64,000 bases of DNA from Candidatus Woesearchaeota archaeon (GTDB lineage Archaea > Nanobdellota > Nanobdellia > Woesearchaeales > GW2011-AR15): positions 27,751 through 91,750 of the forward strand of contig JAFGJW010000014.1 in assembly GCA_016928835.1 (NCBI GenBank). The letters run 5' to 3'. A program made the translations under genes and the position numbers. Numbering within the stretch: position 1 is the first letter of the stretch; each line of letters opens with the position of its first letter. The notes under the pieces are model-generated. The model did not search any database and was not told the DNA's origin. It saw only the letters and a program-made list of their open reading frames with translations. Shown here one piece after another: positions 869 through 56,645 of the stretch.

Positions 869-926
869 TACACTTCTTTATCAATTACTAGTTTTATAAA
901 TCTTTTCTTATTAATAACAATATTAG

Positions 927-1222
927 GGCGATAGGGGAGACTTTCGAACCGGTTGCGAAGCTTTAGCTGAGCATAAGGGCTTGAGCGGAGCGAAACCCTT
1001 TTTGCGTATTACAAGGAAATTTAACGAATTTCCTGTACAAGAAATTCCAAGGGAATTTCTCTGTAACCGAGCGTAACCAGTTAATCGAACTCCCGCCACA
1101 GGATTGCTGTCAACCTCCGGGGGCTTGAGCAAAGCGAAACCCCCAGAATTTTTGGTTAAGCCTTTTAGCTTGTCTAAAAAGGTTACCACAGTCCTGTATT
1201 CTACCATTAAACTACTACCGCC
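927..1222 (-). tRNA. tRNA-His: tRNA-His (anticodon GUG) with encoded G-1 and two BHB introns: intron 1 at 1105..1185 (canonical 37/38, 81 nt) and intron 2 at 941..1083 (59/60 in the T-loop, 143 nt). Mature length 72 nt, CCA not encoded.
   Basis: Minus-strand read: G-1, acceptor GCGGTAG / CTATCGC (one G-U), U8, D-stem GTTT/GAAT, D-loop AATGGTA (GG present), anticodon stem CAGGA/TCCTG, loop C-U-GUG-G. Intron 1 forms helix-bulge(3)-helix(4 bp CTGT/ACAG)-bulge(3)-helix (AACC/GGTT). Exon 2 gives variable TGGC, T-stem GGGAG, TTCGAT. Intron 2 forms a second hBHBh' (TTCG/CGAA 4 bp central helix, 3-nt bulges ATT and AGT, 8-bp outer helix AACTGGTT/AACCGGTT). Exon 3 gives T60 + CTCCC + CTATCGC + discriminator C73, which pairs with G-1 as expected for tRNA-His. 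Confidence 0.75.
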
Positions 1223-1269
1223 ATAGAACATGAGAATTATAATCTGTTTAAAAAAATTTTGCTATAAGC

Positions 1270-2445
1270 TCAGATTATAGACTCAAATACCTTTTTATAG
1301 GATTTGGCCACATTTCGCCAAAGCATATGTCTAGTACTATTATACGCGTTTTGTCCCAGTCTGCTCCTCAAGTCAGAATCAGACAATAATTTTATAACAG
1401 CATTGCTGATTAACTCAGGTTCTCCAAAGTCATCTAATAAGATTCCCTGTTCAGGTGAAATAAACTCCTTAGCATATAAGAAAGGTGTTGATATGACTGC
1501 GCAGCCGCAGCCCATCGCATAGGATAGAGTGCCGCTGACAATCTGATCAGGGTTAAGCGAAGAGCATATATAGATGTCAGTTGCCTGCAAATACCTAAAT
1601 AACTCTCTTAAAGTTACATATTTGTTAATAAATTTTACATTTTTCTCCAGACCCAATTCAATTACCTTATTTTGAAGAAATTCTCTGTATGACTCACCCT
1701 CTGACTTAAGATATTTGGGATGGGTCACCCCAATAATCAGATAAAGAACATTAGGGTATTTTTCCACTATATCTGGCATTGCATCTATCACATATTCATA
1801 TCCTCTGCCAGAAGATCTTGTGCCTCTTCCGGGCCTAAGAAAACCAAAAGAAGTAATCAAATCTCTATCACTGTAACCAAGCTCCTCTTTCAATGACAAA
1901 TTAGATACATGCTCTACTTTGTGTATACCATGAGGGATAACCTCAATCTTTGATTCATCAATATTGTAATGCTCTTTAAGAATATCAACAGCATTGTTAG
2001 ACATTACTACCAATTTATTAGAATGGTTGGCTATTGCTCTAATAATATCCCTCCTGTGCTCAGAAGGATATGGCAAAACTGTGTGCAGAGTCGTCGCAAC
2101 AGGTTTTTTTAGTGTCTCCAAGAAAGACAGTAAATTCTCACCATAATCACTGCCAAAAATCTTGAATTCATGCTGCACACTAACTAATTTAGTATTCTCA
2201 TCATTGTTTATTTCATTTGCTGCAATAATATATTCTTTTGCATCAGCGTCATTTATCTGAAACATTACTCTATCATCATAATTATACTCGCTGTTATTAT
2301 CATTCATTGCACCAATTTTTGATTTCAGCTTTGGATTAGCTGCTCGGTTAAAAGCTGAAGAAAGATCATACGTAAAAGTGGCAATTCCGCATTTACGCGG
2401 GGGATATGTGCCAAGGAAATAAATGTAAGATTGCTTTTTTATCAT
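1270..2445 (-). CDS. GT-B fold glycosyltransferase (GT4-like), paralog A
   Basis: YFLGTYPPRKCGIATFTYDL N-terminal motif and C-terminal GT-B nucleotide-sugar region; ~45% identical by eye to ORF 3476..4627. Confidence 0.65.
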   Translation of the reverse strand: MIKKQSYIYFLGTYPPRKCGIATFTYDLSSAFNRAANPKLKSKIGAMNDNNSEYNYDDRVMFQINDADAKEYIIAANEINNDENTKLVSVQHEFKIFGSDYGENLLSFLETLKKPVATTLHTVLPYPSEHRRDIIRAIANHSNKLVVMSNNAVDILKEHYNIDESKIEVIPHGIHKVEHVSNLSLKEELGYSDRDLITSFGFLRPGRGTRSSGRGYEYVIDAMPDIVEKYPNVLYLIIGVTHPKYLKSEGESYREFLQNKVIELGLEKNVKFINKYVTLRELFRYLQATDIYICSSLNPDQIVSGTLSYAMGCGCAVISTPFLYAKEFISPEQGILLDDFGEPELISNAVIKLLSDSDLRSRLGQNAYNSTRHMLWRNVAKSYKKVFESII

Positions 2446-2586
2446 AAGAATATTTTTTGGTAAACAGCCCCATTATATTAATTTATCTAATAGAAAGTGC
2501 ATAAAGTCTCTGGTTCTTGTCCCAAAAAAACATATACACTGGATAAAACAAAAAATATTATAAAAGTCAAGCATATTTATTATTGT

Positions 2587-3483
2587 ATGGTGTTTAAAAG
2601 ATATCAAAATAATCCTATCATAAAGCCTGACCCCAATAGAGAGTATGAAAAAAACTTTACATATAATCCATGTGCAATTGTCCACAACAATGAGATATAT
2701 TTGATATATCGAGCAGAAGGAGATTCTGATGTTTCTACACTTTGCCTGGCAACAAGCAATGATGGCTATAACTTCACAAAGTATAATCTTAATCCAATTA
2801 TCAAACCCACAATTCCTGAAGAAAAAGGGGGCTGTGAAGACCCAAGGATAATAAAGATAGATAACACATTCTATCTAACATTTACTGCATACAATGGTAT
2901 GCAGCCTGTTACAAGTGCTACTATTAATACAGCATTCGCTGTCTCAAATGACTTGTTTAATTGGGAAAAAAAGGGGATTCTAGTTAAGGGGATAAAAGCA
3001 GCCACTATTTTCTCTGAAAAAATAAATGAAAAATATCTTATGTTAATTGGAGGAGAATATATAAAGCTGGGATGGTCAAGCGACTTATTTAACTGGGAAA
3101 TCGAGGACAAGCCAATATTGGATGTAAGAGAAGGCAAGTTTGATGACAGATATGTGGAGGTTGGACCCCAGCCATTGGTATTCCAGGATAAACTAGTTTT
3201 ATTTTTCAATACTGCAGACAAACAAGGAGTATTCCATCCTTCTTTAGCTATACTTGATAAAAAAGATCCACATAGAGTCATTTATAGAGCAGATACACCC
3301 TTAATGACACCTGCACAAGATTATGAATTGAAGGGCAAAGTAAAAAATGTGATCTTTGGTACAGGACTGGTTGAATTCAATTCTCAGTATTTTTATTATT
3401 ATGGAGCAGCAGATAAATATGTTTGTCTGGCAACAATTGAAAAAGACATATTAGAAGAATATTTAACAGGTTTAATTAGTTAA
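2587..3483 (+). CDS. GH130-family glycoside phosphorylase/hydrolase-like protein (DUF377 beta-propeller). The track ORF starts at 2497; an internal ATG at 2587 is the more likely start.
   Basis: YNPCAIVHNNEIYLIYRAEG and GCEDPRIIKIDNTFYLTFTAYNG motifs typical of GH130. A TATA-like 'attataaaag' ~25 nt upstream of ATG 2587 suggests a leaderless start. Confidence 0.65.
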   Translation: MVFKRYQNNPIIKPDPNREYEKNFTYNPCAIVHNNEIYLIYRAEGDSDVSTLCLATSNDGYNFTKYNLNPIIKPTIPEEKGGCEDPRIIKIDNTFYLTFTAYNGMQPVTSATINTAFAVSNDLFNWEKKGILVKGIKAATIFSEKINEKYLMLIGGEYIKLGWSSDLFNWEIEDKPILDVREGKFDDRYVEVGPQPLVFQDKLVLFFNTADKQGVFHPSLAILDKKDPHRVIYRADTPLMTPAQDYELKGKVKNVIFGTGLVEFNSQYFYYYGAADKYVCLATIEKDILEEYLTGLIS

Positions 3484-4627
3484 GATTTTGGTCAAATAGA
3501 TCAAGATATGATTTTGCCACATTGCTCCAGAGCATATGCCTTGTGAAATCATAACAATTCTGTCCCATCCTTAACCTTAGCCCTGGATTGGATAGAAGTC
3601 TAATTAATGCCTTTGTGTATGCTTTTGAATTGCCCATGGGCACAAGTATGCCCCGATCAGATGTTACTATTTCCTTTGCATGCATAAAAGGCATTGTGAC
3701 AACAGGCCTGCCGCAGCCCATTGCATATGACAGAGTGCCGCTTGTTATCTGGCCAAGACCTTTACCTGAAGAAACAAAGACATCTGTAGCTCTTAAATAT
3801 TGCAGGAGCTTATTTAATTTCAAATATTTGTTAACAAACCTAATATTTTTCTGAAGGTTTAAACCATCGATAAGTCCAGTCAGATAGTATCTGTATTTTT
3901 CTCCTTCCTGCTTCAAAATACCTGGGTGAGTTGCTCCAATAATCAAGTACAATAGATTTGGGAATTTTTTGACAACTGGCGGAAGCGCCTTAATGATAGT
4001 TTCATAATCCTTGCCTCCGCTTATCAAACCAAATGAAGTAATAACGAGCTTGTTCCTTAATTTTAACTTTTTCTTTTGCTTGCTGCTTCTTTCAAAAGGC
4101 ACTTTATGGATCCCATGAGGTATAACAGTTATTCTCTCTCTTGGTATTTTGTAATCATTTGTAAGTATGTCAACTGCTTTGTCAGCCATGACTATTAGAG
4201 CAGAGGTTTTTTCTGCCAGATACTTGATTGTGTATCTAAGGTTAGCAGGTGGTTTTGGCACAACAGAATGAAGAGTCAAAACAACAGGTTTCTCTATTGT
4301 CTCAAGAAAAGCGCTGAGATAATTAAGGAATTTCCCGCCATAAATCCCGAACTCGTGCTGCACACACACCAATTTTATTGAGCGGGTTTGGTTGATTTTT
4401 TTAGCCACATTGATATAATCCTCTATCAAAGTCTCATTAATATTATACATTACCTCCTTTGGATATTCAAGGTCAGTTGAAAACCCGTTAGTCAGTGCAA
4501 TAATTTTAGGCTTAGTCTTGTATATAGATCTGTTTGAGATAGCTGTGCTCAAATCCTGAGTAAATGTTGCAATACCGCATTGTCTTGGAGGATAGGTACC
4601 TATATATGCAATGTAAGAAGGTCTCAT
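3476..4627 (-). CDS. GT-B fold glycosyltransferase (GT4-like), paralog B
   Basis: YIGTYPPRQCGIATFTQDL; same architecture as 1270..2445. Confidence 0.65.
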   Translation of the reverse strand: MRPSYIAYIGTYPPRQCGIATFTQDLSTAISNRSIYKTKPKIIALTNGFSTDLEYPKEVMYNINETLIEDYINVAKKINQTRSIKLVCVQHEFGIYGGKFLNYLSAFLETIEKPVVLTLHSVVPKPPANLRYTIKYLAEKTSALIVMADKAVDILTNDYKIPRERITVIPHGIHKVPFERSSKQKKKLKLRNKLVITSFGLISGGKDYETIIKALPPVVKKFPNLLYLIIGATHPGILKQEGEKYRYYLTGLIDGLNLQKNIRFVNKYLKLNKLLQYLRATDVFVSSGKGLGQITSGTLSYAMGCGRPVVTMPFMHAKEIVTSDRGILVPMGNSKAYTKALIRLLSNPGLRLRMGQNCYDFTRHMLWSNVAKSYLDLFDQNLN

Positions 4628-4701
4628 CTAATTTTTAAGAAAATAAAATAGTTAAAAAGCTTTTCTATACTTTTCAAAAGAATTTCTGTATGGGGGCACA
4701 A

Positions 4702-5928
4702 TTACTTTGTCTTTATCTTCATGTCTCCTTGGGAACTCAAGAATTCTATCTTATTCTCCCGACTCAACCATCCTATTGCTAAATAAATTAAATCCTCTTT
4801 TCTCTTCAAAGTATTTCTTATTTCAGACAAGTTTCTTGGGGTGTCTTTGCACATTCTATAGATCTCTCCAGCTATTTTGCCAATCTCATAATTCATTTGG
4901 TATGTAACTTGACCAGGCAGCAGTTCGTTGAGCAATTCCGCAGTACTTACTGATGCAACCCCAATCCTTTTATCAGCAGCACCATAGTATATATAAAGTC
5001 TGTCATCAAAAATGGCTGCGCCTTCCGGGAATACAACATTATTAACATCTCCCTGGAGCTCCCAGTCCAATTCAGGAGAGAAAAGTGGTTTTTCTAGCCT
5101 TCCTCTTATCTTTGTGGGATTTGCTTTGTCCAGAAGGGCAGCTGCAGCATGATATACTCTATAATTCTCTGCATTTTGTACTGCATGATAAATAAAAATC
5201 CATCCTTTTTCTGTTTCAATAGGAGGACAGCCGCCCCCAATATTTCTGGATTCATACCAATACTTTGGTTCAAGTATAATATAATTTGGCAATGTTTCCA
5301 GATATCTTTTCCAATAATCCATATCTGCTAATTGCTTGAAATCATCAAAATATATTACTTGTATATCGGGCAGAATTCTATGGATTAATGCAAATTTACC
5401 ATTAATCTTTTTTGGGAATAATATGGCATCTTTTTCCCATAGCAGTACATCTTCACCTTTCACTTCTTTATAAAATGACTTGAAAAAGAAATATCTATCT
5501 TTTAATTTTGAATTAAGGAAAATCTCTCTAACATCATTGTACTTAATCTTTGGACTTATCACTCCTTTCTTTTCCCATTTGATTAAATCTTTGCTGACAG
5601 CATATGCAATAAGGGCATTCTTACCGTCATATGCTGTATAGAGCATATAGTAGGTCTCGTCAATACACACTATCCTAGGGTCCTCTACACCTTGTTTTTC
5701 ATAATCATTTTCAGGAAATAGTATAGGTTTTTGACTGCGCTGGGCAACTTTCAGAGGACCATCAAGTTTACAATACCCAACACAAGAACGAAAATCTTTT
5801 CCAACTGCCCTATAGAACATATGTACATTGTTTTTATCCTTGATGCAGGCAGGATTTAGCACAGCCTGGTTTTCAAACTCTAAGTCTGTAGCTTCAAGAA
5901 TTACTCCCTCTTTTTTTACACTTACCAT
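4702..5928 (-). CDS. GH130-family glycoside phosphorylase-like protein, paralog B
   Basis: VLNPACIKDKNNVHMFYRAVG and GVEDPRIVCIDETYYMLYTAYDG motifs. Confidence 0.65.
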   Translation of the reverse strand: MVSVKKEGVILEATDLEFENQAVLNPACIKDKNNVHMFYRAVGKDFRSCVGYCKLDGPLKVAQRSQKPILFPENDYEKQGVEDPRIVCIDETYYMLYTAYDGKNALIAYAVSKDLIKWEKKGVISPKIKYNDVREIFLNSKLKDRYFFFKSFYKEVKGEDVLLWEKDAILFPKKINGKFALIHRILPDIQVIYFDDFKQLADMDYWKRYLETLPNYIILEPKYWYESRNIGGGCPPIETEKGWIFIYHAVQNAENYRVYHAAAALLDKANPTKIRGRLEKPLFSPELDWELQGDVNNVVFPEGAAIFDDRLYIYYGAADKRIGVASVSTAELLNELLPGQVTYQMNYEIGKIAGEIYRMCKDTPRNLSEIRNTLKRKEDLIYLAIGWLSRENKIEFLSSQGDMKIKTK

Positions 5929-8095: not shown

Positions 8096-10192
8096 TTATG
8101 GATGGATGTATCTAGCTATAATCGCGTTCGCTGCGGCCACAAAATCTATTTTTTCTCTAGTAACATAAGAATAAAAATTTGTTTTAACTGCATCATTTAC
8201 CTCGAAGAATTCTGAAGTGTGGCTCTGGTCCGCAAAAAACCCCTTCTTGGGATGATGGGCATATTCATGGGTTACTAATGCAACTAATGAACTAACCTCT
8301 CCAGGAGTTAATGATTTATTATTTCCTGTTCTCATCATCAATTCTTTAATTAACTCATTCCTTGTATTAAACACAACATATGCAGGTGCACAATAGGGTA
8401 ATCTAATTGTCCATGCTGCTACATCTCGATTACTGACTCCTGTCAGGACTCCAACATCCTGCAACCCATTAGCCTGTGCAATTAGTGAGGATAGGTAACA
8501 TCCAATTTCTTGTAATGCCATTCTTTCTTTTGAATATCCCAACTCTGATGCTAATCTTACCAAAGACCTAGGAACAGGAAATTGATATGGAACAGTGACT
8601 GAAGTCAGCAGGTTTCTTATTGAAAACCCTTTTTTGCCAGCATCTAACCCTCTAACAAAACATTTATATTCTTCACTTAGATATATGCCCTCAGATTCTC
8701 CCACTTCCCCAACATATAACTTACCTCTTCGATTTGCCTTTCTTATCTGGGATAGACTCACTTTCTCTTCGATAGTTTTATCTCTCTTTTTTATATGAGC
8801 TGGAATTATTTTTCGTCTCGATATTAGATATTGTGGCGCGATGCTTGTTAATAGTATTGAACATTTGTGTAAAAAATCTCTCCAACCAGATGCAATGCTT
8901 TCTCCAGCATCATTAAAGGACTCCCGACTAATAATCCTCTTAATTGTGTTAATAGTTGTGTATCCAACTGTCCCAATGCCGGCCACACCAGCTAAAACAC
9001 CTAAACCTACTAGTGCATATCCTACTACTTCTGATATAGTGGGGTTGATATTCTGACTTTGTTCGGCAAGATAAACAAGTAGGCGACCTACAGGGTATAG
9101 CGCAGCCAGACCTACCATTACTTTGGCAAATTGATGTGCCTTTTTAAAACCAAGAACTTCATTTAGCCAATATAGTTGATTCGCATTCAGGTTTTCCAAA
9201 TTACTTAGTAAGTGATTTATATAGATACGTCTGTACCTATTTTTGTTTTTTAGTACATGTTGTCTCACAAAATAGGGTATTTCATTTCTGCCTCTAGTAA
9301 GAATTATTTCTGTTGGTAAATCAATAAGAATTGCTGGGTACTCCTCACCAAACCAATTTGAACTAATATACAGGCCACGCTGAGTGTAGTTACAATGCCC
9401 TGTTACTCCTATTTCTCTACCTGCACCCATAAATACCTCAATTTCGTATTCTTTTTCTCCATCTTTTATTACTTCAACCATCTTAAAATCAAATTCATCT
9501 CTTGAATTAATCTGCTCACCATTTACAATAATTTTAGCAATCCTTGGATCAACATAACCAGCATAAGTCCACAAGGAATTTTCCATAGTTCCATAGCCTA
9601 GTTTAAAATCTTCTAAGGTTATTGTTGTCCCTCCAGCATCTGGATCTGTCTTCTGAAATTCGACCATCCTTTCCCCATTAGACCCAATATATCTTGTTCT
9701 CCAGCCATCTGACTCCACTATAACACTTTTTGAGCGTCCAAGAGCAGCTAGAAAGCCTTGACCATGACATCCAATAGTAGCACCATTATCTGATTTACTA
9801 GAGCTCCCAACTACAGACAGGTGATGTATCACTTGTTGAATAGACATGCCACCACCATTATCTCTAACAGTAGCTGAGTATATGCTCTCAAAGTCAACTT
9901 CTCCTTCTAAGTTGTAGTCTATCACAATTTCTCCTCCTTCGTCTATCTCATCAAGACTGTTCTGTATCAATTCTCTTAAAACTTCATCCCCTGGAAACTG
10001 TGCTTCAATTGTGTGCGTTAATTCTCTTTCACAAAGGGATTTATCAGAATAGGCTCCAATTTCTCTTACAATAGCATCTAATGCAAGAGGATCCTCTTCT
10101 GTGACAGCAGCAACTACACTATCCAATATGGCTCGCTGCATATATATTGGGACCATCTGCCACATTGGGATTCTTATTATTGGATGTGTCAT
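8096..10192 (-). CDS. GHKL (Bergerat-fold) ATPase, Hsp90/MORC-like, with central TM helices and a C-terminal HExxH metallopeptidase-like motif (GHKL-B)
   Basis: N-box ELIQNSLDE, G1 RDNGGGMS, G2 GCHGQGF; hydrophobic segments ~aa 350-420 (MVGLAALYPVGRLLVYLA, GYALVGLGVLAGVAGIGTVGY); C-terminal THEYAHH...SEFFE. A 1-nt gap separates it from the upstream GHKL-A gene (operon). Confidence 0.65.
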   Translation of the reverse strand: MTHPIIRIPMWQMVPIYMQRAILDSVVAAVTEEDPLALDAIVREIGAYSDKSLCERELTHTIEAQFPGDEVLRELIQNSLDEIDEGGEIVIDYNLEGEVDFESIYSATVRDNGGGMSIQQVIHHLSVVGSSSKSDNGATIGCHGQGFLAALGRSKSVIVESDGWRTRYIGSNGERMVEFQKTDPDAGGTTITLEDFKLGYGTMENSLWTYAGYVDPRIAKIIVNGEQINSRDEFDFKMVEVIKDGEKEYEIEVFMGAGREIGVTGHCNYTQRGLYISSNWFGEEYPAILIDLPTEIILTRGRNEIPYFVRQHVLKNKNRYRRIYINHLLSNLENLNANQLYWLNEVLGFKKAHQFAKVMVGLAALYPVGRLLVYLAEQSQNINPTISEVVGYALVGLGVLAGVAGIGTVGYTTINTIKRIISRESFNDAGESIASGWRDFLHKCSILLTSIAPQYLISRRKIIPAHIKKRDKTIEEKVSLSQIRKANRRGKLYVGEVGESEGIYLSEEYKCFVRGLDAGKKGFSIRNLLTSVTVPYQFPVPRSLVRLASELGYSKERMALQEIGCYLSSLIAQANGLQDVGVLTGVSNRDVAAWTIRLPYCAPAYVVFNTRNELIKELMMRTGNNKSLTPGEVSSLVALVTHEYAHHPKKGFFADQSHTSEFFEVNDAVKTNFYSYVTREKIDFVAAANAIIARYIHP

Positions 10193-10193
10193 T

Positions 10194-11807
10194 TTATAAT
10201 ATCTCCAACATAGTACGATTTTCAGCTTCTTCTATTCCATACAAACAGGTTTTTAAAAAAAAGTCCAGAGCAGATTTACGTGTAGATTCTGGCAGCTCAT
10301 CATGAAAAAATCCATGATTTTTATTTATATATAGTTCAGTTACAGGTTCACCATGATACCTAAAATTAGAAGCAAAAGGAGATACAGTATCCTGTGGACC
10401 TTCTATTAGATATACTGTAATATCAGGCGTTTCCAATTCTCTAAGACTATATTGCATTCTTTGCTCCTCTGACATATCTCTTAATTGCACTCTAGTTGCA
10501 GATTCTTTCACATCTTGAAAATCAATGACACCCAAATTAGGATTAACTAATAAGCTTTCAATTATTTCTATATGTCCGACATTATTTGGGTCAACAACAA
10601 GTGCACCTGAATAAAATCTATCTAAGTTCATATGCCTATTTCTTGAGATTATTATTGGCCTCTCTGAAGACATATCTTTATTAAAATAGACACTCAAGAG
10701 ACTACAAACTTCATCAGTTGTTCCAGTAGCAGCAACACCCAGAAAGATTCGGGAGTGTAATGCAGATCTCAATATCCTATCATATGTTGCTAGGGGCAGA
10801 TGCTCTTTTATATATTCCAAGTAAGGTAATATTGCCTGCACAAATACTTCCCTTTGTGCTTGTCTGAACCTTTTATCTTTAATAAAGGCATTTCTCCCCT
10901 CAACAAGTTGACATGATAGGGGATAATCAGTAATCATATCTAAAGCAAAACTATCATGAGTAACATACACACCACCAGACAAAGACAATTGGTCACCATA
11001 ATCCTTTTTTGGTAGACCCAAAACTACTTCAATTGTTTCTCTATCAAATGGGATACTATATGTTTGGGGTTGTCTTATTGGAATTGGATAACCAAAGTTT
11101 ATTTGCTTGCCATTACAGCTGATTATACACCTTTCAGGCGGCACATATTGAACATATTCTTCAATCAGTTTTCTACTTGATTTTACTTTACCTAAACCCA
11201 GCTTGTTTTTTATTCTGCCAAAAAAGCCATCGCGAGAACCTAATTGAATATGTATCGTTGTACCCGGCTCCCTGGTTTCATGTTTAGAATATCTTACAGT
11301 GAGTTTTCCATCCTCCATAAAATACACTGCTCGATAGTGAGTTCCATTTTGTGTATCTACAATAACTCTGCCACCTCTTTGCACAACATTCAATATTGAA
11401 TAAAAACCTACACCAAACCTACCAATTTTATCTACCTTTCCTGAGAAAAAGGGTAATGCCAAGTCATATAAAAGAGTCTCAAAGGTCATTCCAGAACCAT
11501 CATCTTTAATTATGATCTCATCTCCTCTATCCACAAATTGAATATTCTTAGAGCCTGCATCTATTGAATTAGCAATTAATTCAATCAGCTCTCTCCCAGA
11601 TCTCGTGAACTGATGAGTAATTAAGTCGTGCAATTTATTTGATACATAATCTTGGTTATAATCAAAATCAGGTATAGTGTAATCTTCTCCCTGGTCTACA
11701 GCTTTTTGTAGAGCCTCAACCGTTTGTGCAAATTTTCCTGAATTTATTGTCGCTAATGCTATGAGTCTTTCTAAAGGCACTACTATACCCTTTTTTGGCT
11801 CATTCAT
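10194..11807 (-). CDS. GHKL ATPase, Hsp90-like (GHKL-A), soluble
   Basis: N-box ELIANSIDA, G1 IKDDGSGMT, G2 IGRFGVGFYS (almost identical to the Hsp90 IGQFGVGFYS signature). Confidence 0.7.
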   Translation of the reverse strand: MNEPKKGIVVPLERLIALATINSGKFAQTVEALQKAVDQGEDYTIPDFDYNQDYVSNKLHDLITHQFTRSGRELIELIANSIDAGSKNIQFVDRGDEIIIKDDGSGMTFETLLYDLALPFFSGKVDKIGRFGVGFYSILNVVQRGGRVIVDTQNGTHYRAVYFMEDGKLTVRYSKHETREPGTTIHIQLGSRDGFFGRIKNKLGLGKVKSSRKLIEEYVQYVPPERCIISCNGKQINFGYPIPIRQPQTYSIPFDRETIEVVLGLPKKDYGDQLSLSGGVYVTHDSFALDMITDYPLSCQLVEGRNAFIKDKRFRQAQREVFVQAILPYLEYIKEHLPLATYDRILRSALHSRIFLGVAATGTTDEVCSLLSVYFNKDMSSERPIIISRNRHMNLDRFYSGALVVDPNNVGHIEIIESLLVNPNLGVIDFQDVKESATRVQLRDMSEEQRMQYSLRELETPDITVYLIEGPQDTVSPFASNFRYHGEPVTELYINKNHGFFHDELPESTRKSALDFFLKTCLYGIEEAENRTMLEIL

Positions 11808-11943
11808 TTTGAAATCCCCTGAGAAATCGATTTACTGCGTATTCAATCAAATGACTTCTATTCCTAAAAAGACCCTCTTCTAATTGTAAATCAATGTCAT
11901 TAATAGTTACATCTTCTATTGATATTGAAAGTTTCTTTTTCAT
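11800..11943 (-). CDS. ribbon-helix-helix (CopG/Arc/MetJ-like) small regulator, 47 aa; not in the ORF track
   Basis: MKKKLSISIEDVTINDIDLQLEEGLFRNRSHLIEYAVNRFLRGFQNE is a typical beta-strand + two-helix RHH. Its TGA stop overlaps the ATG of GHKL-A (ATGAATGA, 8-nt overlap). Confidence 0.55.
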   Translation of the reverse strand: MKKKLSISIEDVTINDIDLQLEEGLFRNRSHLIEYAVNRFLRGFQNE

Positions 11944-11957
11944 ACTACTTAGTAGTA
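11943..11957. promoter_or_regulatory. 7-bp inverted repeat TACTACT-T-AGTAGTA overlapping the RHH start codon; candidate RHH operator. TATATA box and ATACTACT direct repeats follow in the 282-bp divergent intergenic region.
   Basis: Palindrome read directly from the sequence; position is typical of an autoregulated RHH operator. Confidence 0.3.
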
Positions 11958-12089
11958 AAAGATACTACTATATAAATCTTACTATTTTTTATTACTGTAT
12001 AGTAATTAAACCAGAGAGATTTATCTATAAATAGTTAACTCATGTTAATAACAAAACATTTTAAATAACCCTTTTCTTTCTCTGTTCTT

Positions 12090-13610
12090 ATGAAGGGGCT
12101 TATCATCTCAGGCAAGTTCTCTGAATTAATTGTGAGGCAGAAATCTGATCAGGAAATAGAACTGGGAGAGCTATTGATCGCAGAGAACAAGAATTCAAAA
12201 ATATTGCTGCAGTGTTATGACTTAGTCTATGGAAGCCAGATTTCTCAATTAAACCTTGAGCTGGTTTCTGGGATGAAGCTAGAGGAGGAATCTAATCTAG
12301 AATTCATGGATGAGAAGTTAAGGAATTATAACCTAGCTTTGTTAAAAAATTTAATAACAATTACTCCCAATAAGGCACATTCATCAAAATCATTGCCTGG
12401 TTTTTTTTCTCATGTGAGGGAGGTTAAGAAAGATGATTTAAAGTTTATCACCAAACCAGAGAACCCATTGTTCACTGGCAAACTGAGGTCAGGATCAAAG
12501 GAATTGGATGTTGATATCTTTCTACCCGGGGATAAGGTTTTTACCCATCACGTGCTTTTAGGTGCATCCACTGGCAAAGGGAAATCTAATCTAGCTGCAA
12601 CTATGCTCTGGGATTTAATGAACAGAGACTATGCAGGAATTCTTGTTTTAGACCCGCATGATGAATACTTTGGAAGAAACAAGCTTGGCTTAAAAGACCA
12701 CCCAAATAGAAAGAATCTTGTCTATTACAGCCCTGATGCGCCTCATGGTGCCAGAACATTGAGAATCAATATTAAGCAGATAAGACCAGGCCACTTTAAT
12801 GGTGTTATTGACTGGAGCCAGGCACAGGACGAGGCATTAACTGCGTATTACAGGAAGTATAAAGAAGGCTGGATTGAAGCAGTTTTATTAGAAAAAGAAG
12901 TGCATGGTTTTATGGAAGGCACATTAGCTGTATTGAAAAGGAGATTATTGTCATTGCTGGATTTGGATGTAGCTGAGGAGAAGATTTTCTGTAATGGCAT
13001 ATTTGATTTCAATTCAGGCCGAACAACAATAGCAGACATATGCAGTGACCTGGAAAAAGGGAAGATTGTGGTTATAGATACATCAAATTTCTCTGGCAAT
13101 GTGGAAATCCTTATTGGAAGCCTTGTAACAAGTGAAATATTCTACAGGTACAAGAATTACAAATCCAAAGGTGTGCTGGATGATAAACCCACTATTTCCA
13201 TCTTTCTTGAGGAAGCTCCAAGGGTTTTGGGAAAAGAAGTGCTTGAAAAAGGCCCTAATATTTTTTCAACTATTGCCCGTGAAGGCAGAAAATTTAAAGT
13301 TGGTTTGACAGCAATAACACAGCTCCCTTCTCTAATACCCAGAGAGATACTAGCTAACATAAATACCAAGATAATTCTAGGGATAGAGATGAATGCTGAA
13401 AGGCAGGCAATAATAGAATCTGCAGCCCAGGATCTAAGCTCTGATTCAAGGGCAATTGCCAGTTTAGACAAAGGAGAAGCAATAATTACTTCGAATTTCA
13501 CAAGGTTTGCCATTCCGGTCAAGATTCCTTTGTTTAGTGAGTATGTAAAAAAAGATTTGAAAAAAGAAAAGGAAGTGCAGACTGATTTTAGTGGGATTAA
13601 ATTGAGTTAA
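12090..13610 (+). CDS. HerA/FtsK-superfamily ATPase (DUF87 HerA-like)
   Basis: Walker [12 protein letters not shown] followed by [10 protein letters not shown] (the DUF87 'iiDphGEY' motif), Walker B FLEEAPR, C-terminal [17 protein letters not shown]; N-terminal HAS-barrel-like region. Confidence 0.7.
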
Positions 13611-36118: not shown

Positions 36119-36562
36119 TTAAGAAAAATGGCTTTGAGTTATAAATTTATTTATGGTTATATTAAGTAATTTGTCTTTTAATTTAAAATCAATTTTCTCT
36201 GGCTCTACCCATAAGAACTCTGTGTGTTCATCACTCAATTTTGTCTGATGGTTTTTGACAGTGCATAGATAGGTTATCCTAATAATCTGTTCATTGTCAT
36301 CTTTATGTATAGTAGAAGCATCAAGTATCTGTCTTATACTGTTAATCTCTAATCCGGTTTCTTCATATACCTCTCTCTTTAACCCTTCTATTGGTTCTTC
36401 TCCAAAATTAAGCCTGCCACCAGGTATGTCCCAGAATTCATGTGCATCATAGTTTTCATATTTATGAGAGCGTTTTATTAACAAGACTTTTCCATTATGA
36501 ACAATTAATGCTTTCACACCAATGAAAAATTTAGACATTATGATTATGTTCCTTCTCTCCAT
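36119..36562 (-). CDS. Nudix hydrolase (likely starts at the internal Met, ~36538)
   Basis: Nudix box GGRLNFGEEPIEGLKREVYEETGL. Confidence 0.75.
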   Translation of the reverse strand: MERRNIIIMSKFFIGVKALIVHNGKVLLIKRSHKYENYDAHEFWDIPGGRLNFGEEPIEGLKREVYEETGLEINSIRQILDASTIHKDDNEQIIRITYLCTVKNHQTKLSDEHTEFLWVEPEKIDFKLKDKLLNITINKFITQSHFS

Positions 36563-37812
36563 GAAGACATATATTTTTTCTGTTCTATGGTCAATTCATC
36601 AATTTTGATCCCCATTGCCTCTAATTGCAGTCTAGCAACCTCATCATCTCTTTCTGGCGGCAGTACATATACTCTCGGTTCCAGCTTTCCCTTGTTCTGA
36701 ACAAGGTACTCGCAAGCAAATGCCTGGTTGCAGAAAGACATTGCCATTATTGAAGAGGGATGGCCTTCAGCAGCTGCTAAATTAATAAGCCGCGCCTCTC
36801 CCAAGATATAAATTTTTTTATCATTAAGTTTGAATTCGTCCATAAAAGGTCGTATTCTTCTCTCCTTAGCTATTTTCTTCAAACTATTAATGTTTATTTC
36901 AGCGTCAAAATGTCCTGAATTTGCCAAGACAGCTCCGTCTTTCATTAATTTCATGTGCTCAATATCAATGACATTTTTGTTCCCAGTCACTGTAACAAAG
37001 ATATCACCTATTTTGGCAGCTTCTTTTATCGGCATTACTCTGAAACCGTCCATAACTGCCTGCAGTGCTCTAAAAGCATCAACTTCTGCAACAATAACAT
37101 TTGCATCAAAGCCCTGGGCTCTCTTTGCTACACCCTTGCCGCAACTTCCATAGCCACAAACAACAAAGTTCTTTCCTGCGACTAAAATATTGGTGGCCCT
37201 TAAAATGCCATCAATTGTGCTCTGGCCAGTACCCTTGATATTATCCATCAAATGCTTTGTATTTGACTCATTTACAGCAATTATTGGGTAGTTTAATGCA
37301 TCGTCTTTTTCCATTGCTCTTAATCTAATGACGCCTGTAGTAGTTTCTTCGCAACCGCCGATTATGTGGGGGATTAGATTTCTGTGATGCAGGTGAATCT
37401 CGCTTACAAGATCGCAGCCGTCATCAATTGTTATATGCGGCTTTTGTTTGATTATGTATGTAATGTACCTATAGTAATCTTCTCTACTTTCACCTTTATA
37501 TGCCCATACTTTTACGCCAAGCTTTGCCAGAGCAGCTGCAACATCATCTTGTGTTGATAAAGGGTTGCAGCCAGTTATCGCAACATCTGCCCCGCCAGCA
37601 ACTAAGGTCTTAACAAGAACTGCGGTTTCTTTTGTGACATGCAGCGCCATTCCCACTCTCAGACCCCTCAATGGTTTTTCTTTTTCAAACCTGTGTTTCA
37701 CTTTAAGCAATGCACCCATCTGCATCTCGGCCCATTCAATATTCTTTGAACCTTGCTCAGCTAATTTTAAATCCTTAACTTCATAGTTTTGAGATTTGTC
37801 CATATTATTCAC
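36544..37812 (-). CDS. ahcY: S-adenosyl-L-homocysteine hydrolase
   Basis: Full-length AdoHcyase with NAD-binding GYGSCGKG and conserved catalytic regions. Confidence 0.9.
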   Translation of the reverse strand: MNNMDKSQNYEVKDLKLAEQGSKNIEWAEMQMGALLKVKHRFEKEKPLRGLRVGMALHVTKETAVLVKTLVAGGADVAITGCNPLSTQDDVAAALAKLGVKVWAYKGESREDYYRYITYIIKQKPHITIDDGCDLVSEIHLHHRNLIPHIIGGCEETTTGVIRLRAMEKDDALNYPIIAVNESNTKHLMDNIKGTGQSTIDGILRATNILVAGKNFVVCGYGSCGKGVAKRAQGFDANVIVAEVDAFRALQAVMDGFRVMPIKEAAKIGDIFVTVTGNKNVIDIEHMKLMKDGAVLANSGHFDAEININSLKKIAKERRIRPFMDEFKLNDKKIYILGEARLINLAAAEGHPSSIMAMSFCNQAFACEYLVQNKGKLEPRVYVLPPERDDEVARLQLEAMGIKIDELTIEQKKYMSSWREGT

Positions 37813-43961: not shown

Positions 43962-46766
43962 TTAATTTTCAAGGTATCTTTCAAGGAAATATCTTTCAGC
44001 ATAATTCTCTTCAAAAATTAGTCTTGTTAGCAACACAGAAGCTTTAAGTGTCTGCATGAGATCTTGTCCTCCAGTTTCACCTGGCTCCATGTTTGTGAGA
44101 TAATATCCCTGTGCTTCTAAAAAGTAGGTTGCATCTTGATCTATCTCTGTAGGAAACTCTACTACTAGTTCTTCATTGAATGAGACTTCTGCGTAATTAT
44201 TGTCTTTTTCTAATAGTTGTTGTGTAAAATCTTGACCCTCTTTTACTGCCTTTGTCGGTTTATAGGATTTCACTTCCATTGGCAGATCTACGCTTGTGTC
44301 AGCACCAATATAATCAAATGCATATGCTCCTCGCCAGAACTCTAATCTGATTTTATTATCTTTTAATAAACTTGAATCCAATGGTATTACTATTGTTTTA
44401 TAAGTTCCCACAACGAACTGTGTAAGTTCTTTGTCAGGATAGTCAATCCAATTTCCATTAGAATCTTTTATCATTGTTTTTAATGAAGATGCTCTCTGAA
44501 TTTTTGAGATTATTTTATCTCCAATGACCGGCATTTTCATTAACCCAACCACAGTACTTATATCAAATGATGAAGACCCAAATAGATCAGCTTCTGCAAA
44601 ATTTAGCTGCCCTGTCTCAGACAGCGAAACAACCAATTTTATTATTGATTGCGACTCAGGCAAACTGATTTCCAAATAATCACGTGGACTATCTTCTACA
44701 TCAGCAATCTTACTTGTGTATGCATGCTTTCCGTAATCTTCTTCAGAAATGATTTTAGCTTCTGGAATCTGCACCATATATCTTTTTAATTCTGTGTCTA
44801 TTGTCTTAATTAGTGAAGTACAGTCTGTCCCAGAACTGTCTACGCACTCTACAGGCGTAAGTTCTTGAATAGTATGAGAAATACCATTATTGTCCTGCAG
44901 TATTTCTGTAATTGGCACAGTAGTCTGAACTTCAATTAATTTAATTTCATCTAAGTAATATGTTTCATCAAAAAATTCTGTGAGTTTTACGCTTGGTTCG
45001 CTTAGGCCATTTAACTTTGTATAATAACCAGAGACCATAAGCTCGCTGAATTGTCCTAAGGATATATCCTCTGCATATACATATCCCTTCTTCGTCTTAT
45101 AATACAGCGAAGGACAGCCACCGCCTCCTCCTCCAGAAGGTTGTGTTGTTGTGGTTACTGATGGTGGCATGGTTGTTGGTATTGATGGTGGTGTGGTTGT
45201 GGTTGGTGTTGATGGTGGTGTGGTGCCTCCTTCAGGACAATCGTCACAATGAGACCAAGGACAACAAGGACCTGAACCGCCTGCAGCCTCACATTCACAT
45301 GTGCCTTCTTTATAACAATTTCTGGTACTTCCATCGGGACATGTTTCTTGATACACCTCATCACAAGATTTACCAGTACATCCTGTAACACAAACATGGC
45401 CATTTCCGCCACATGATTCACCGCAACAAAGCGGTGTCGTTGTCGTAGTTGTAGAAGAGCCACCTCCACCAAAATCATCTGGATCAGGACATTCAGTATC
45501 ATCTCTACATCCCACAATCTGATAATAATAATCTTGAGAAGGCATGTGCTCATACTTTGCCACAAGACAGCCCGTCTGGAAATGAATATTAGGGTTATTA
45601 TCACTTCCTCCTTTAACTCGTGTACAATACATAAGCATATAATCTTCTTGTGAAGAAGGCGGATTTGGATGTAAGAAGGAATACTCATTAACTAGTTTTC
45701 CACCAGTATAGCCTTCCTGACATCTACAAGCAAACTGACTATAAGTGTCTCCTGTTGAGGTGTCTCCAAACCCCCAGTAACTAAATGGTCCGTAGTTTGG
45801 ATTATTAACTGCAAACCATCTATAATTTGTGTATTGTGTATTAATCGGATAAGGATACTGACTAATATGGTCAAGCCAATATTGTACACTCTCAGCGTCA
45901 CATAAATTTGAATCTGGAGCTATAGGATTATAGAAGATGCTACCTGAATCTGTGAAATCTTCTCTCCTATTTAAATCCCACCAATTAACTGCACCTCCAG
46001 CACCGCTCCCACAATGAAGAGCATATGACCAGCAAGTCGGATTGGTTATCCCTACATATGATATTTGTTTACCAACATCAGAAGTGCCTTTACCACACCA
46101 GTCAAACGCTAAGTTAACATAATCTTCAAAACAATGGGGATTGCCATCACTATCTGGAGCATAGGGCCTGGATCCACCATTATCAGAGCGCTCCCATAGT
46201 TGGATACCAAAGTTACCATTATTCAAATCAAGATTACACCAATGCATGCCTATATAATCTGTATCAACAAAATCTGGTGGAACATAATGATTTCCTCCAG
46301 TTTGTTCTTGTCTTTTCCACTCGTCCCAGAAGTTCAAGTTATCTAGTCTTTCTTTAATTTCCTTAAGATTTTGCTGTGCAGCATCCTCAAAGTCTTGAGC
46401 TGCACAATCTGGACATATTGTATAATATCCTGGCCGGCAAAGTAGTTCTCCAGCACGACATCTTGCTCTAAAATTTGGTTTTACTCCTAATATGTAATCC
46501 CAAGGATTGCAACCTTGGCATATCCCAAAAGAATATGCCATACACGCTGTACATTGGTCAAGTGTTGGTTGATCAGTCCAACCGTACGTGGCCATATCAC
46601 AACATACGGGCCAGCATGTGGGATTAGAACCCTCAGGACATATACCTGCTTGAAAATAACCAGTCTCAAACATCTCTCCGTTATAGCCAATACCTGCATA
46701 AACAGCAACCAATACTGCTGCAAATATAAATACAAAGCCAGAAATAAAAAATATTTTCTTATTCAT
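43962..46766 (-). CDS. large Cys-rich surface protein with an N-terminal TM anchor and PT-rich linkers
   Basis: 934 aa; hydrophobic N-terminus; Thr/Pro stretches (TPPSTPTTTTPPSIPTT); many Cys. Confidence 0.5.
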   Translation of the reverse strand: MNKKIFFISGFVFIFAAVLVAVYAGIGYNGEMFETGYFQAGICPEGSNPTCWPVCCDMATYGWTDQPTLDQCTACMAYSFGICQGCNPWDYILGVKPNFRARCRAGELLCRPGYYTICPDCAAQDFEDAAQQNLKEIKERLDNLNFWDEWKRQEQTGGNHYVPPDFVDTDYIGMHWCNLDLNNGNFGIQLWERSDNGGSRPYAPDSDGNPHCFEDYVNLAFDWCGKGTSDVGKQISYVGITNPTCWSYALHCGSGAGGAVNWWDLNRREDFTDSGSIFYNPIAPDSNLCDAESVQYWLDHISQYPYPINTQYTNYRWFAVNNPNYGPFSYWGFGDTSTGDTYSQFACRCQEGYTGGKLVNEYSFLHPNPPSSQEDYMLMYCTRVKGGSDNNPNIHFQTGCLVAKYEHMPSQDYYYQIVGCRDDTECPDPDDFGGGGSSTTTTTTPLCCGESCGGNGHVCVTGCTGKSCDEVYQETCPDGSTRNCYKEGTCECEAAGGSGPCCPWSHCDDCPEGGTTPPSTPTTTTPPSIPTTMPPSVTTTTQPSGGGGGGCPSLYYKTKKGYVYAEDISLGQFSELMVSGYYTKLNGLSEPSVKLTEFFDETYYLDEIKLIEVQTTVPITEILQDNNGISHTIQELTPVECVDSSGTDCTSLIKTIDTELKRYMVQIPEAKIISEEDYGKHAYTSKIADVEDSPRDYLEISLPESQSIIKLVVSLSETGQLNFAEADLFGSSSFDISTVVGLMKMPVIGDKIISKIQRASSLKTMIKDSNGNWIDYPDKELTQFVVGTYKTIVIPLDSSLLKDNKIRLEFWRGAYAFDYIGADTSVDLPMEVKSYKPTKAVKEGQDFTQQLLEKDNNYAEVSFNEELVVEFPTEIDQDATYFLEAQGYYLTNMEPGETGGQDLMQTLKASVLLTRLIFEENYAERYFLERYLEN

Positions 46767-55433: not shown

Positions 55434-56645
55434 TTAGGATTTCTTGTTTTTCATGAGTTTATAAAAGAAGTATATATTGAAGATAATAAGTAGTACAACC
55501 AAAATTGTAAGAACGGATATAGACCTAAATATTGATTCCTCTTTGCCTTGCATTTGTGACTGGCCGCCAATAATCCTTCCTATGCCGATAGTATCTATTC
55601 TATCCAGCGAGACCATAATATCAAATGTCTTTTTTGTGACTTTATCAGCATAATTAAGGACTACATCAACATAGTACTTGCCGACTTCTATCCCCTGCGT
55701 GTCCCAATAAGAGGTAATATTCATCTCTCCTAAAGGCGCAATATCAAATTCATGTATTTTAAAAGATGCAATCGACTGCTCATCATTTCTTACAACAACC
55801 TCTCCTGTCACTTGCCTCATATAGTCTGTCCATGCATTTTCCAGGAGGATATTAAGCTTGGCAATCTGTCCGAGCTGGAAATTATTGACATTCAATTCTT
55901 TTATCAATATTAAACCCTCTCCAATTAAGAAGTCTGTCTCTGCCTGAGCTGTCCTGTCATCATAATTAATTATTGCTTCTGCATGATACTTGCCTATGCC
56001 CACATTCGGCACCCATTTGGCAACCAGTTCTGTCTTAGCTTTTGAATTGACTGGTTTCTGATTACTATGTATGGTAGCTATTCTCTCATTAGTAGGGCCT
56101 ATGATCGTGATTGCGGCTTTTGCATCTGAGATATCTTCTTCACCATAATTAAACAATTCAACAAAGAAATTAATGCCCCCATCATCTGATTTCTCTGCCC
56201 TCAGGGTTGCCTCTGCATATTTGCCTGGGTAAGGAACTCTTACTTTAAGCTTTGAAATTACTGCAACACGCGCTCCGATAAAAGTGCCCTGAGCCTCGTT
56301 CTCTTCTGGAATCTCCATCACGATTATCTTAGTTTCGTGAATACCCGGCCTCCCGATATCAGCAGGAAAATCAATCTCGTAATTGTATGTCCTTTTTTCA
56401 TCCTTGTCTGTAAAGCTAACAAGCGAGTCATGCAGCGTGATATATTCTGCTAGCTCTCCCTCAGTATATATTACTGCCTTAAAAAATTCATTATTTGTAT
56501 TGTGTATGGTAAATTGGAGCTGCTGTTTTATATTAGGCTCAAATTCAATTTCTTTTATGCCTGGACTTATGCCAAATGCAAGTGTATCTTTCATTAACAT
56601 AATAAACAGCAAAAATACAACTCCTGCAATTATTCTCTTTTTCAT
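55434..56645 (-). CDS. secreted protein with signal peptide and C-terminal TM anchor
   Basis: N-terminal signal; C-terminal ILVVLLIIFNIYFFY helix. Confidence 0.4.
   Translation of the reverse strand: MKKRIIAGVVFLLFIMLMKDTLAFGISPGIKEIEFEPNIKQQLQFTIHNTNNEFFKAVIYTEGELAEYITLHDSLVSFTDKDEKRTYNYEIDFPADIGRPGIHETKIIVMEIPEENEAQGTFIGARVAVISKLKVRVPYPGKYAEATLRAEKSDDGGINFFVELFNYGEEDISDAKAAITIIGPTNERIATIHSNQKPVNSKAKTELVAKWVPNVGIGKYHAEAIINYDDRTAQAETDFLIGEGLILIKELNVNNFQLGQIAKLNILLENAWTDYMRQVTGEVVVRNDEQSIASFKIHEFDIAPLGEMNITSYWDTQGIEVGKYYVDVVLNYADKVTKKTFDIMVSLDRIDTIGIGRIIGGQSQMQGKEESIFRSISVLTILVVLLIIFNIYFFYKLMKNKKS

Follow-up and report, generated by a model that had tools for sequence, protein, structure and literature searches.

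Archaeal tRNA genes interrupted by several introns are known from Thermoproteales, Nanoarchaeum, the archaeal Richmond Mine acidophilic nanoorganisms (ARMAN)/Micrarchaeota and other members of the DPANN group (Diapherotrites, Parvarchaeota, Aenigmarchaeota, Nanoarchaeota, Nanohaloarchaeota) (PMC4090602, PMC5829648). Their introns are spliced by proteins at bulge-helix-bulge (BHB) motifs, 59/60 is a known position beside 37/38, the genes are invisible to standard finders, and the host lineage is known for an EndA of broad specificity. A locus on the minus strand, 1222..927, of a 64,000-nt stretch of contig JAFGJW010000014.1 (the window, to which all coordinates refer) is alike in each of these respects. 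From its sequence we conclude, with a probability of about 0.88, that it is a functional, disrupted tRNA-His(GUG) gene with two BHB introns in a Woesearchaeales-type DPANN archaeon. The gene is a new member of an already known kind, and differs from the described cases in being a Woesearchaeales-type tRNA-His with a 143-nt T-loop intron and a conserved hairpin in both introns.

As read from the sequence, the gene consists of three exons and two introns. The parts are given below with minus-strand features listed 5' to 3' in descending numbers, followed by two features given by their outer limits.

1222-1186, minus strand: exon 1, 37 nt, with G-1, acceptor strand GCGGTAG, U8 and A9, D arm GTTT-AATGGTA-GAAT, and A26
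ending at 1186, minus strand: 3' part of exon 1, with anticodon stem CAGGA and loop CTGTGG through G37, anticodon GTG
1185-1105, minus strand: intron 1, 81 nt, position 37/38
1104-1084, minus strand: exon 2, with A38, TCCTG, the 4-nt variable loop TGGC, T stem GGGAG, and TTCGAT (T54-T59)
1083-941, minus strand: intron 2, 143 nt, position 59/60
940-927, minus strand: exon 3, with T60, CTCCC, CTATCGC and the discriminator C73
1247..1256, minus strand: A/T-rich box TTTTTTTAAA, 25-34 nt upstream of G-1
923..1231, minus strand: open reading frame (ORF) of 102 aa, ATG to stop, entirely over the pre-tRNA, from a mechanical ORF listing

The predicted exon junctions are CTGTGG/ATCCTG and TTCGAT/TCTCCC. 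Intron 1 starts with TAACCTT and ends with GACAGCA; intron 2 starts with TAACTGG and ends with TTCGAAAG. CCA is not encoded at the 3' end, where the bases after C73 are CTA. By its position, the box TTTTTTTAAA is a candidate archaeal TATA box for the pre-tRNA.

The spliced 72-nt sequence was called tRNA-His(gtg) by ARAGORN. Neither ARAGORN nor Rfam detected the locus in the unspliced genomic DNA, and the intron mode of ARAGORN on the locus DNA gave no match or a wrong assignment; after removal of intron 2 alone, it reported a false tRNA-Ala. An unconstrained fold of the 296-nt precursor gives the anticodon stem, the T stem and an 8-bp acceptor stem including G-1:C73, in which the G at 1222 pairs with the C at 927 as the eighth acceptor pair. 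The fold has a z-score of -3.7, and 0 of 200 shuffled sequences folded equally well. An earlier sequence-only reading had proposed a minus-strand tRNA-His with an encoded G-1:C73 pair and a GUG anticodon, and both the ARAGORN call on the 72-mer and the precursor fold bear this out. Its length of 143 nt for intron 2 is right as well, and the TTCGATT T-loop and GGGAG/CTCCC T-stem that it expected splicing to restore are seen in the joined 72-mer.

A free choice of two deletions in 296 nt gives many combinations, and independent evidence for the exon boundaries was therefore sought. A metagenome scan with a D-arm/anticodon pattern yielded 69 related tRNA-His loci (L-numbers denote loci from the genome and metagenome scans; L188 is a metagenome contig, and L020 a locus in a metagenome-assembled genome, MAG). 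The intronless tRNA-His of L188 is colinear with the predicted spliced product over both junctions and identical at 69 of 72 positions, with exon 1 identical throughout (37/37). From the window to L188, the pair G50-C64 becomes U50.G64, by which the T-stem pair is kept, and U69 becomes C, which turns G4.U69 into G4-C69. L188 itself scores 68.1 bits on the Rfam tRNA model RF00005 (cut-off 29), and a second intronless relative scores 72 bits. The agreement of the exon boundaries with this gene corroborates the claimed introns at 37/38 and 59/60.

A strict parse resolved 48 tRNA-His genes, namely 46 metagenomic relatives, L020 and the window gene. Eight have no intron, 23 have one at 37/38 only, 16 have both, and one has a T-arm intron only; the unparsed relatives, judged by eye, are mostly intronless. 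G-1 is present in 69/69 metagenomic relatives and in L020, and C73 in nearly all. In L020 the tRNA-His gene (5748-5905) has its two introns, 45 and 40 nt long, where the window gene has them, and their sequence is unrelated. Among distinct T-arm introns, that of the window included, 10/13 lie at 59/60 and 3/13 at 53/54; L140, L146 and L161 have the second intron of tRNA-His at 53/54 rather than 59/60. The sequence-only reading had described 59/60 as a rare, non-canonical position. It is indeed listed as non-canonical for archaeal tRNA introns (PMC4090602), but a T-arm intron is common in this lineage (17/48 parsed genes).

Folding of the exon-intron junctions gave a canonical hBHBh' motif for intron 2. 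The T stem (1094-1090 with 939-935, 5 bp, GGGAG/CUCCC) is followed by the central helix UUCG (1089-1086) with CGAA (946-943), which is flanked by a 5' bulge AU/U (1085-1083) and a 3' bulge AG/U (942-940), and by an outer helix of 8 bp, AACUGGUU (1082-1075) with AACCGGUU (954-947). The strict arrangement of two 3-nt bulges, a 4-bp helix between them and a cut after the second bulge base is thus found exactly. The T arm imitates the anticodon arm in having a 5-bp stem and a 7-nt loop that is cut after the sixth loop base. In intron 1 the central helix is formed by CUGU (C32-U35, 1191-1188) with ACAG (1110-1107), the 3' bulge is CA/A (1106-1104), the 5' bulge is GG/U (1187-1185), and the outer helix is AACC (1184-1181) with GGUU (1115-1112); the anticodon loop is the pairing partner of the intron tail GGAGGTTGACAGCA. 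Since GG/U faces an additional G, at 1111, intron 1 has a 3x1 internal loop here, or else a 2-nt bulge that a U.G pair closes. This GTTG-plus-extra-base arrangement also recurs in relatives. The earlier description of textbook motifs at both introns accordingly holds for intron 2, while intron 1 has a motif with a relaxed 5' bulge. The full cloverleaf with both BHB motifs has an energy of -95.7 kcal/mol against -100.2 kcal/mol for the minimum free energy (MFE) structure, a cost of forcing of 4.5 kcal/mol. In the relatives, 31/34 distinct 37/38 introns keep the 4-bp central helix unbroken, compared with 2.8% of shuffled introns, and the outer helix covaries (AACT/AGTT, AACA/TGTT, TGAGCGC/GCGTTCA, AACTGGTT/AACCGGTT).

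By analogy with the known archaeal pathway, a precursor of about 300 nt would be transcribed from the upstream A/T-rich box, and RNase P would trim the leader, leaving the encoded G-1. EndA would then cut within the 3-nt bulges of the two BHB motifs, in the anticodon arm at 37/38 and in the T arm at 59/60. The RtcB ligase would join the three exons and circularise the introns, after which CCA would be added.

The two introns also have a relation to each other. Near-identical introns at different positions and in different tRNAs form the transposed tRNA intron families of Thermoproteales, in the account of Fujishima et al. 2010 given in PMC4090602. The window presents a similar picture, as far as that account goes: its intron 1, at 37/38 of tRNA-His, is about 85% identical over its full length to an intron in the D arm of the tRNA-Gly(GCC) gene of L023, and both introns of the gene share a hairpin, GGGTTTCGCNNNGCTCAAGCCC (hp2), at 1142-1121 and 998-977, which the sequence-only reading did not mention. 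The match across tRNAs and the hairpin in both introns point to intron movement. A pattern match for GGGTTTCGCNNNGCTCAAGCCC in the window gave 2 matches against 0 expected, and no convincing further module copy or other split tRNA was found in the 64 kb, where three weak matches lie inside long ORFs. The hairpin is one half of a two-hairpin module, whose parts in the window are as follows.

1155..1184, minus strand: hp1 of intron 1, AACCTTTTTAG...CTAAAAGGCTTAAC, subtype CAACC-TTTTT/AAAAA-GCTTGACC
1119..1144, minus strand: hp2 copy 1, GG-GGGTTTCGCTTTGCTCAAGCCC-CC, 0 mismatches, a hairpin in the MFE structure
1065..1082, minus strand: hp1 of intron 2, AACTGGTTACGCTCGGTT, of the CAACTGGTTACGCTCGGTTGAC subtype
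1008..1064, minus strand: extra segment of 57 nt with two small hairpins, from comparison with the module consensus
975..1000, minus strand: hp2 copy 2, AA-GGGTTTCGCTCCGCTCAAGCCC-TT, with closing pairs other than those of copy 1

Intron 1 is laid out as hp1, linker, hp2 and tail. Its hp1 subtype also opens the 37/38 introns of tRNA-His in L121, L141, L164 and L165, which have hp1 and the tail in common with the window and another hairpin in the place of hp2. The CAACTGGTTACGCTCGGTTGAC subtype of intron 2 recurs in L004, L022, L031, L039, L064, L084, L087, L101 and L104. In the window the 57-nt segment splits this module between hp1 and the ACGCAA linker; other copies of the subtype are contiguous, and the segment matched nothing in any fetched locus. 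It may be a nested insertion in intron 2. Since the two copies in the window are of different hp1 subtypes, they are independent acquisitions and not the result of an internal duplication.

A scan of species-representative genomes found at least 119 loci with hp2, and all module counts given here and below are among the matches listed. The module measures about 60 nt and consists of a variable hp1, a linker of 6-9 nt and the constant hp2 GGGTTTCGCNNNGCTCAAGCCC, closed by two covarying pairs. The change from GG/CC to AA/TT between the two window copies is compensatory, and in the listed archaeal copies the two flanking pairs are Watson-Crick in 87/91 and 83/91 cases, with four pair types, against 22/91 in a shifted control; the third flanking position is unpaired. 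The sequence of hp1 varies, and hp1 is always upstream of hp2 and well folded (mean MFE -9.3 kcal/mol; random 40-mers have -4.6 kcal/mol; P = 6e-27). Rfam gave no match for the locus or the hairpin at 850-1300, even at E<=10. Two familiar identities for hp2 were dropped: it lacks the tandem G.A pairs of a kink-turn, and no box motifs are visible nor is there an Rfam match that would make it a C/D box small RNA or a known self-cleaving ribozyme.

About 93 of the listed matches come from about 70 archaeal assemblies, which are deposited as Woesearchaeota, Nanoarchaeota, Nanobdellati, two Altiarchaeales and one Aenigmatarchaeota, and which include many MAGs with a DPANN look deposited as 'uncultured Methanosarcinales'. 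These last (L002, L010, L014, L015, L020 and similar) are low in G+C, have tRNAs with several introns, and share 60-70% gene identity with the DPANN-like window; the deposited name 'uncultured Methanosarcinales archaeon' is probably wrong for them. A further 26 listed matches, in G+C-rich bacteria, are without the hairpin context and include repeated coding sequence. A scan of viral contigs gave 4 matches, one of which repeats the coding sequence also matched in bacteria and one of which looks like chance. Two related IMG/VR contigs (L191, 10983-11004; L193, 4652-4673) hold an hp2-like hairpin with AG...CT paired flanks and no recognisable hp1.

The module is found in D-loop tRNA introns (L023, L041, L014), in 37/38 introns (L006 and the window) and in 59/60 introns (L064, L054, L031 and the window). 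Similar introns at different tRNA positions are what defines a transposed-intron family, and here hp2 occurs in D-, anticodon- and T-loop introns. Most intron copies are sense relative to the tRNA, and at least one (L020) is antisense. Among the listed copies, 40/94 lie inside or within 300 nt of an ARAGORN-detectable tRNA, which is an underestimate because multi-intron tRNAs are invisible to ARAGORN. Several loci are more elaborate. L054 (3590-3950) and L014 (minus strand, ~3570-3900) have three-intron tRNA genes, with introns in the D, anticodon and T loops; in the T-loop intron of L054, hp2 stands between two copies of hp1 (36-nt repeat); and in the 605-nt locus L037 the module and its 5' flank stand in tandem upstream of tRNA-Gln, one copy with the variant hairpin GGGTTTCCCCGCGGTCGAGCCC.

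Copies of the module are accompanied by traces of insertion. When exact direct repeats of 14 nt or more are counted, 23/86 listed copies are flanked by them, the longest being 45 nt, compared with 3/382 control positions taken from these loci. On the upstream side, the repeat stops at the 5' edge of hp1. The repeats are often the termini of genes, for instance a tRNA leader with positions 1-16 or a tRNA from T-loop to end with its trailer. Protein genes are hit in the same way: in L070 the start of a gene for S-adenosylhomocysteine hydrolase (SAHH) has the module with a 45-nt duplication, and its first 13 codons are repeated, and in L081 and L098 it lies at the SAHH 3' end with an imperfect repeat of about 18 nt over the last codons. 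The window has its own SAHH gene (36544-37812, minus strand), the 3' end of which (~36544, 36500-36560) is an empty site for the insertion in L081 and L098. Where the repeats are long, a truncated relic adjoins hp1 and the intact gene stands on the hp2 side, in about 20 cases against 0 of the opposite polarity (L002, L010, L019, L034, L047, L070, L075, L081, L093, L094, L098, L101 and others). Two explanations of these repeats were discarded. The hp1-adjacent repeat could be a guide sequence that pairs with the neighbouring gene, but sense and antisense cases both occur. If a spliced cDNA had partly overwritten an intron-containing gene, the sense T-loop cases should have the opposite polarity, and this is never seen.

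These observations suggest that the module is a non-autonomous cassette, probably mobile, which rides in BHB introns or creates them. It would survive where it does no harm, either in BHB introns, from which it is spliced out, or at gene ends, where the duplicated target keeps the gene intact. Compared with the transposed introns of Thermoproteales, it belongs to another phylum, its unit is a discrete two-hairpin cassette of about 60 nt, and it occurs also outside tRNAs, with target duplications of 14-45 nt and an empty site. We know of no insertion traces of that sort reported for the Thermoproteales introns. A cassette with target duplications and an empty site is new relative to those intron-transposition families.

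Integrative elements that target tRNA genes (tyrosine integrase attachment sites; the Caldiarchaeum model, PMC3293823) are alike in that the repeats are the 3' part of a tRNA from the T-loop to the end, or the 5' part to the D-loop, with the intact gene on one side and a relic on the other. In contrast to them, the insert here is about 60-110 bp, non-coding and without a nearby integrase, and the same arrangement is found at the ends of protein genes. Miniature inverted-repeat transposable elements (MITEs) and hairpins of the repetitive extragenic palindrome/palindrome-associated transposable element (REP/PATE) type are, like the module, short, structured, non-coding, multi-copy and dispersed. 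The module differs from MITEs in having no long terminal inverted repeats, only a terminal complementarity CAAC...GTTG, in a target duplication that is long and variable (14-45 nt) instead of short and fixed, in having no transposase near, and in being strongly tied to tRNA loops and BHB introns. Literature searches by exact sequence and by topic (DPANN mobile introns or MITEs), with subscription journals outside their scope, found no published description of the module.

Tentatively, and at odds below even, we propose that the cassette is a new, non-autonomous mobile element of DPANN archaea which prefers tRNA loops and becomes or enlarges an intron where a BHB can form. At other sites it would survive only with a long target duplication. 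Insertion might proceed through an enzyme that recognises hp2, or at the RNA level by reverse splicing followed by reverse transcription.

Several points weigh against a functional gene in the window. The 5' bulge GG/U of intron 1 is not canonical, the T-loop intron of 143 nt is long beside the 19-40 nt seen in relatives, and a scan of 30 window ORFs turned up no EndA gene. The reading covers 64 kb, and a second tRNA-His may exist elsewhere in the genome. One could then suppose that the locus is a tRNA-His pseudogene inactivated by two mobile modules, with the working gene outside the window. The dispersed repeat in both inserts and the unusual length of intron 2, with its further nested 57-nt segment, would agree with this. 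All exon positions are nevertheless intact, and the differences from L188 leave 50:64 paired and amount at 4:69 to a wobble in place of a Watson-Crick pair; the BHB motifs of both introns are intact in introns otherwise free to vary; and relatives keep introns at both positions too, their BHB helices conserved. In this archaeal group genomes are small, and each isoacceptor is as a rule served by a single gene. We therefore consider a pseudogene very improbable. A real protein gene at ORF 923..1231, with coincidental tRNA-like pieces, has a negligible chance in our judgement. For it speaks a 102-codon ATG-to-stop frame on the same strand, and against it the colinearity of the three exon pieces with the bona fide intronless tRNA-His of L188 (69/72 identical). 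The relatives' introns at the same sites, moreover, differ so greatly in length and sequence that any reading frame would be destroyed. Since Pfam found no family and there was no homologue among 5.8 billion protein clusters, the ORF is a spurious call, as had been supposed; it is explained fully by the pre-tRNA, and its peptides GFALLKP and GFAPLKP are translated hp2.

As to the module, the introns might be real and the module maintained by selection, as an RNA with a function or as an element to which proteins bind; a circular intron RNA that is stable, or a binding site of some processing factor, would be examples. About 70 listed species-level genomes, with proteins only ~50-70% identical, have the same 19 fixed bases in hp2, the covarying closing pairs indicate a structure under selection, and the predominance of sense copies in introns would fit as well. 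We regard this explanation as unlikely, in view of the antisense intron copy of L020, the many copies that are intergenic or at gene ends with target duplications, the absence of the module from the tRNA-His introns of close relatives, and the lack of a matching Rfam family. The module is also not in most relatives: an unbiased sampling of 418 kb of contigs around related tRNA-His genes held 0 copies. The same result shows that the module is sparse and low in copy number, which counts against a mobile cassette too. So do the want of any recurrent neighbour family (integrase, transposase or reverse transcriptase) near the 93 module loci, the combination of variable repeat length and fixed polarity, for which standard transposition does not account, and the exact conservation of hp2, which could reflect a cellular function. 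With these points included, we still hold the non-autonomous cassette to be the better account of the module.

The window around the gene is archaeal, with a G+C content of 37.7% and genes for ABCE1, a family B DNA polymerase and HerA. Its proteins are 60-72% identical to loci of MAGs deposited as Nanoarchaeota, Nanoarchaeia and Woesearchaeota. EndAs of DPANN archaea with an L3 loop, a larger number of disrupted tRNA genes and undetected disrupted tRNAs have been reported (PMC5829648). Rfam, run on the whole window, gave nothing at the gathering threshold and at E<=5 two weak matches elsewhere, well below gathering scores; in the 64 kb no further tRNA and no RNA of an Rfam family was detected besides the split tRNA-His. 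Directly upstream of the tRNA, 1270-5928 holds two group-1 glycosyltransferases and two GH130 phosphorylase-like genes. A contig retrieved by way of the neighbouring glycosyltransferase breaks off in exon 1, some 28 nt into the tRNA gene, and DNA identical to the flank of the gene is present in SRR13394437. At 8096-13610 two adjacent HATPase_c_3 (GHKL ATPase) proteins lie beside a HerA-type helicase, a cluster that could be a defence or DNA-maintenance module. Two long ORFs are on the minus strand, one of 934 aa without a Pfam or NCBIfam match (43962-46766) and one of 2349 aa (56642-63691).

At such a locus gene callers give a hypothetical protein and tRNA finders miss the gene, so that the genome wrongly seems to be without tRNA-His. 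The tRNA-His genes of L020 and L141 were likewise missed by tRNA detection, and missed disrupted genes of this sort are consistent with the incomplete tRNA sets reported for DPANN (PMC5829648). The way in which introns arise in archaeal tRNA genes is an open question, and the cassette may help to explain it. One and the same cassette is part of putatively working introns in three tRNA loops, and it also stands simply inserted, with target duplications and an empty site, which provides concrete junctions for testing insertion mechanisms and sequences for seeking the protein that recognises the invariant hairpin. If this reading is true, the mobile cassette would give archaeal tRNA intron gain its first tractable vehicle, and its filled and empty sites, its duplications and its conserved hairpin would point to an insertion enzyme or to a mechanism at the RNA level.

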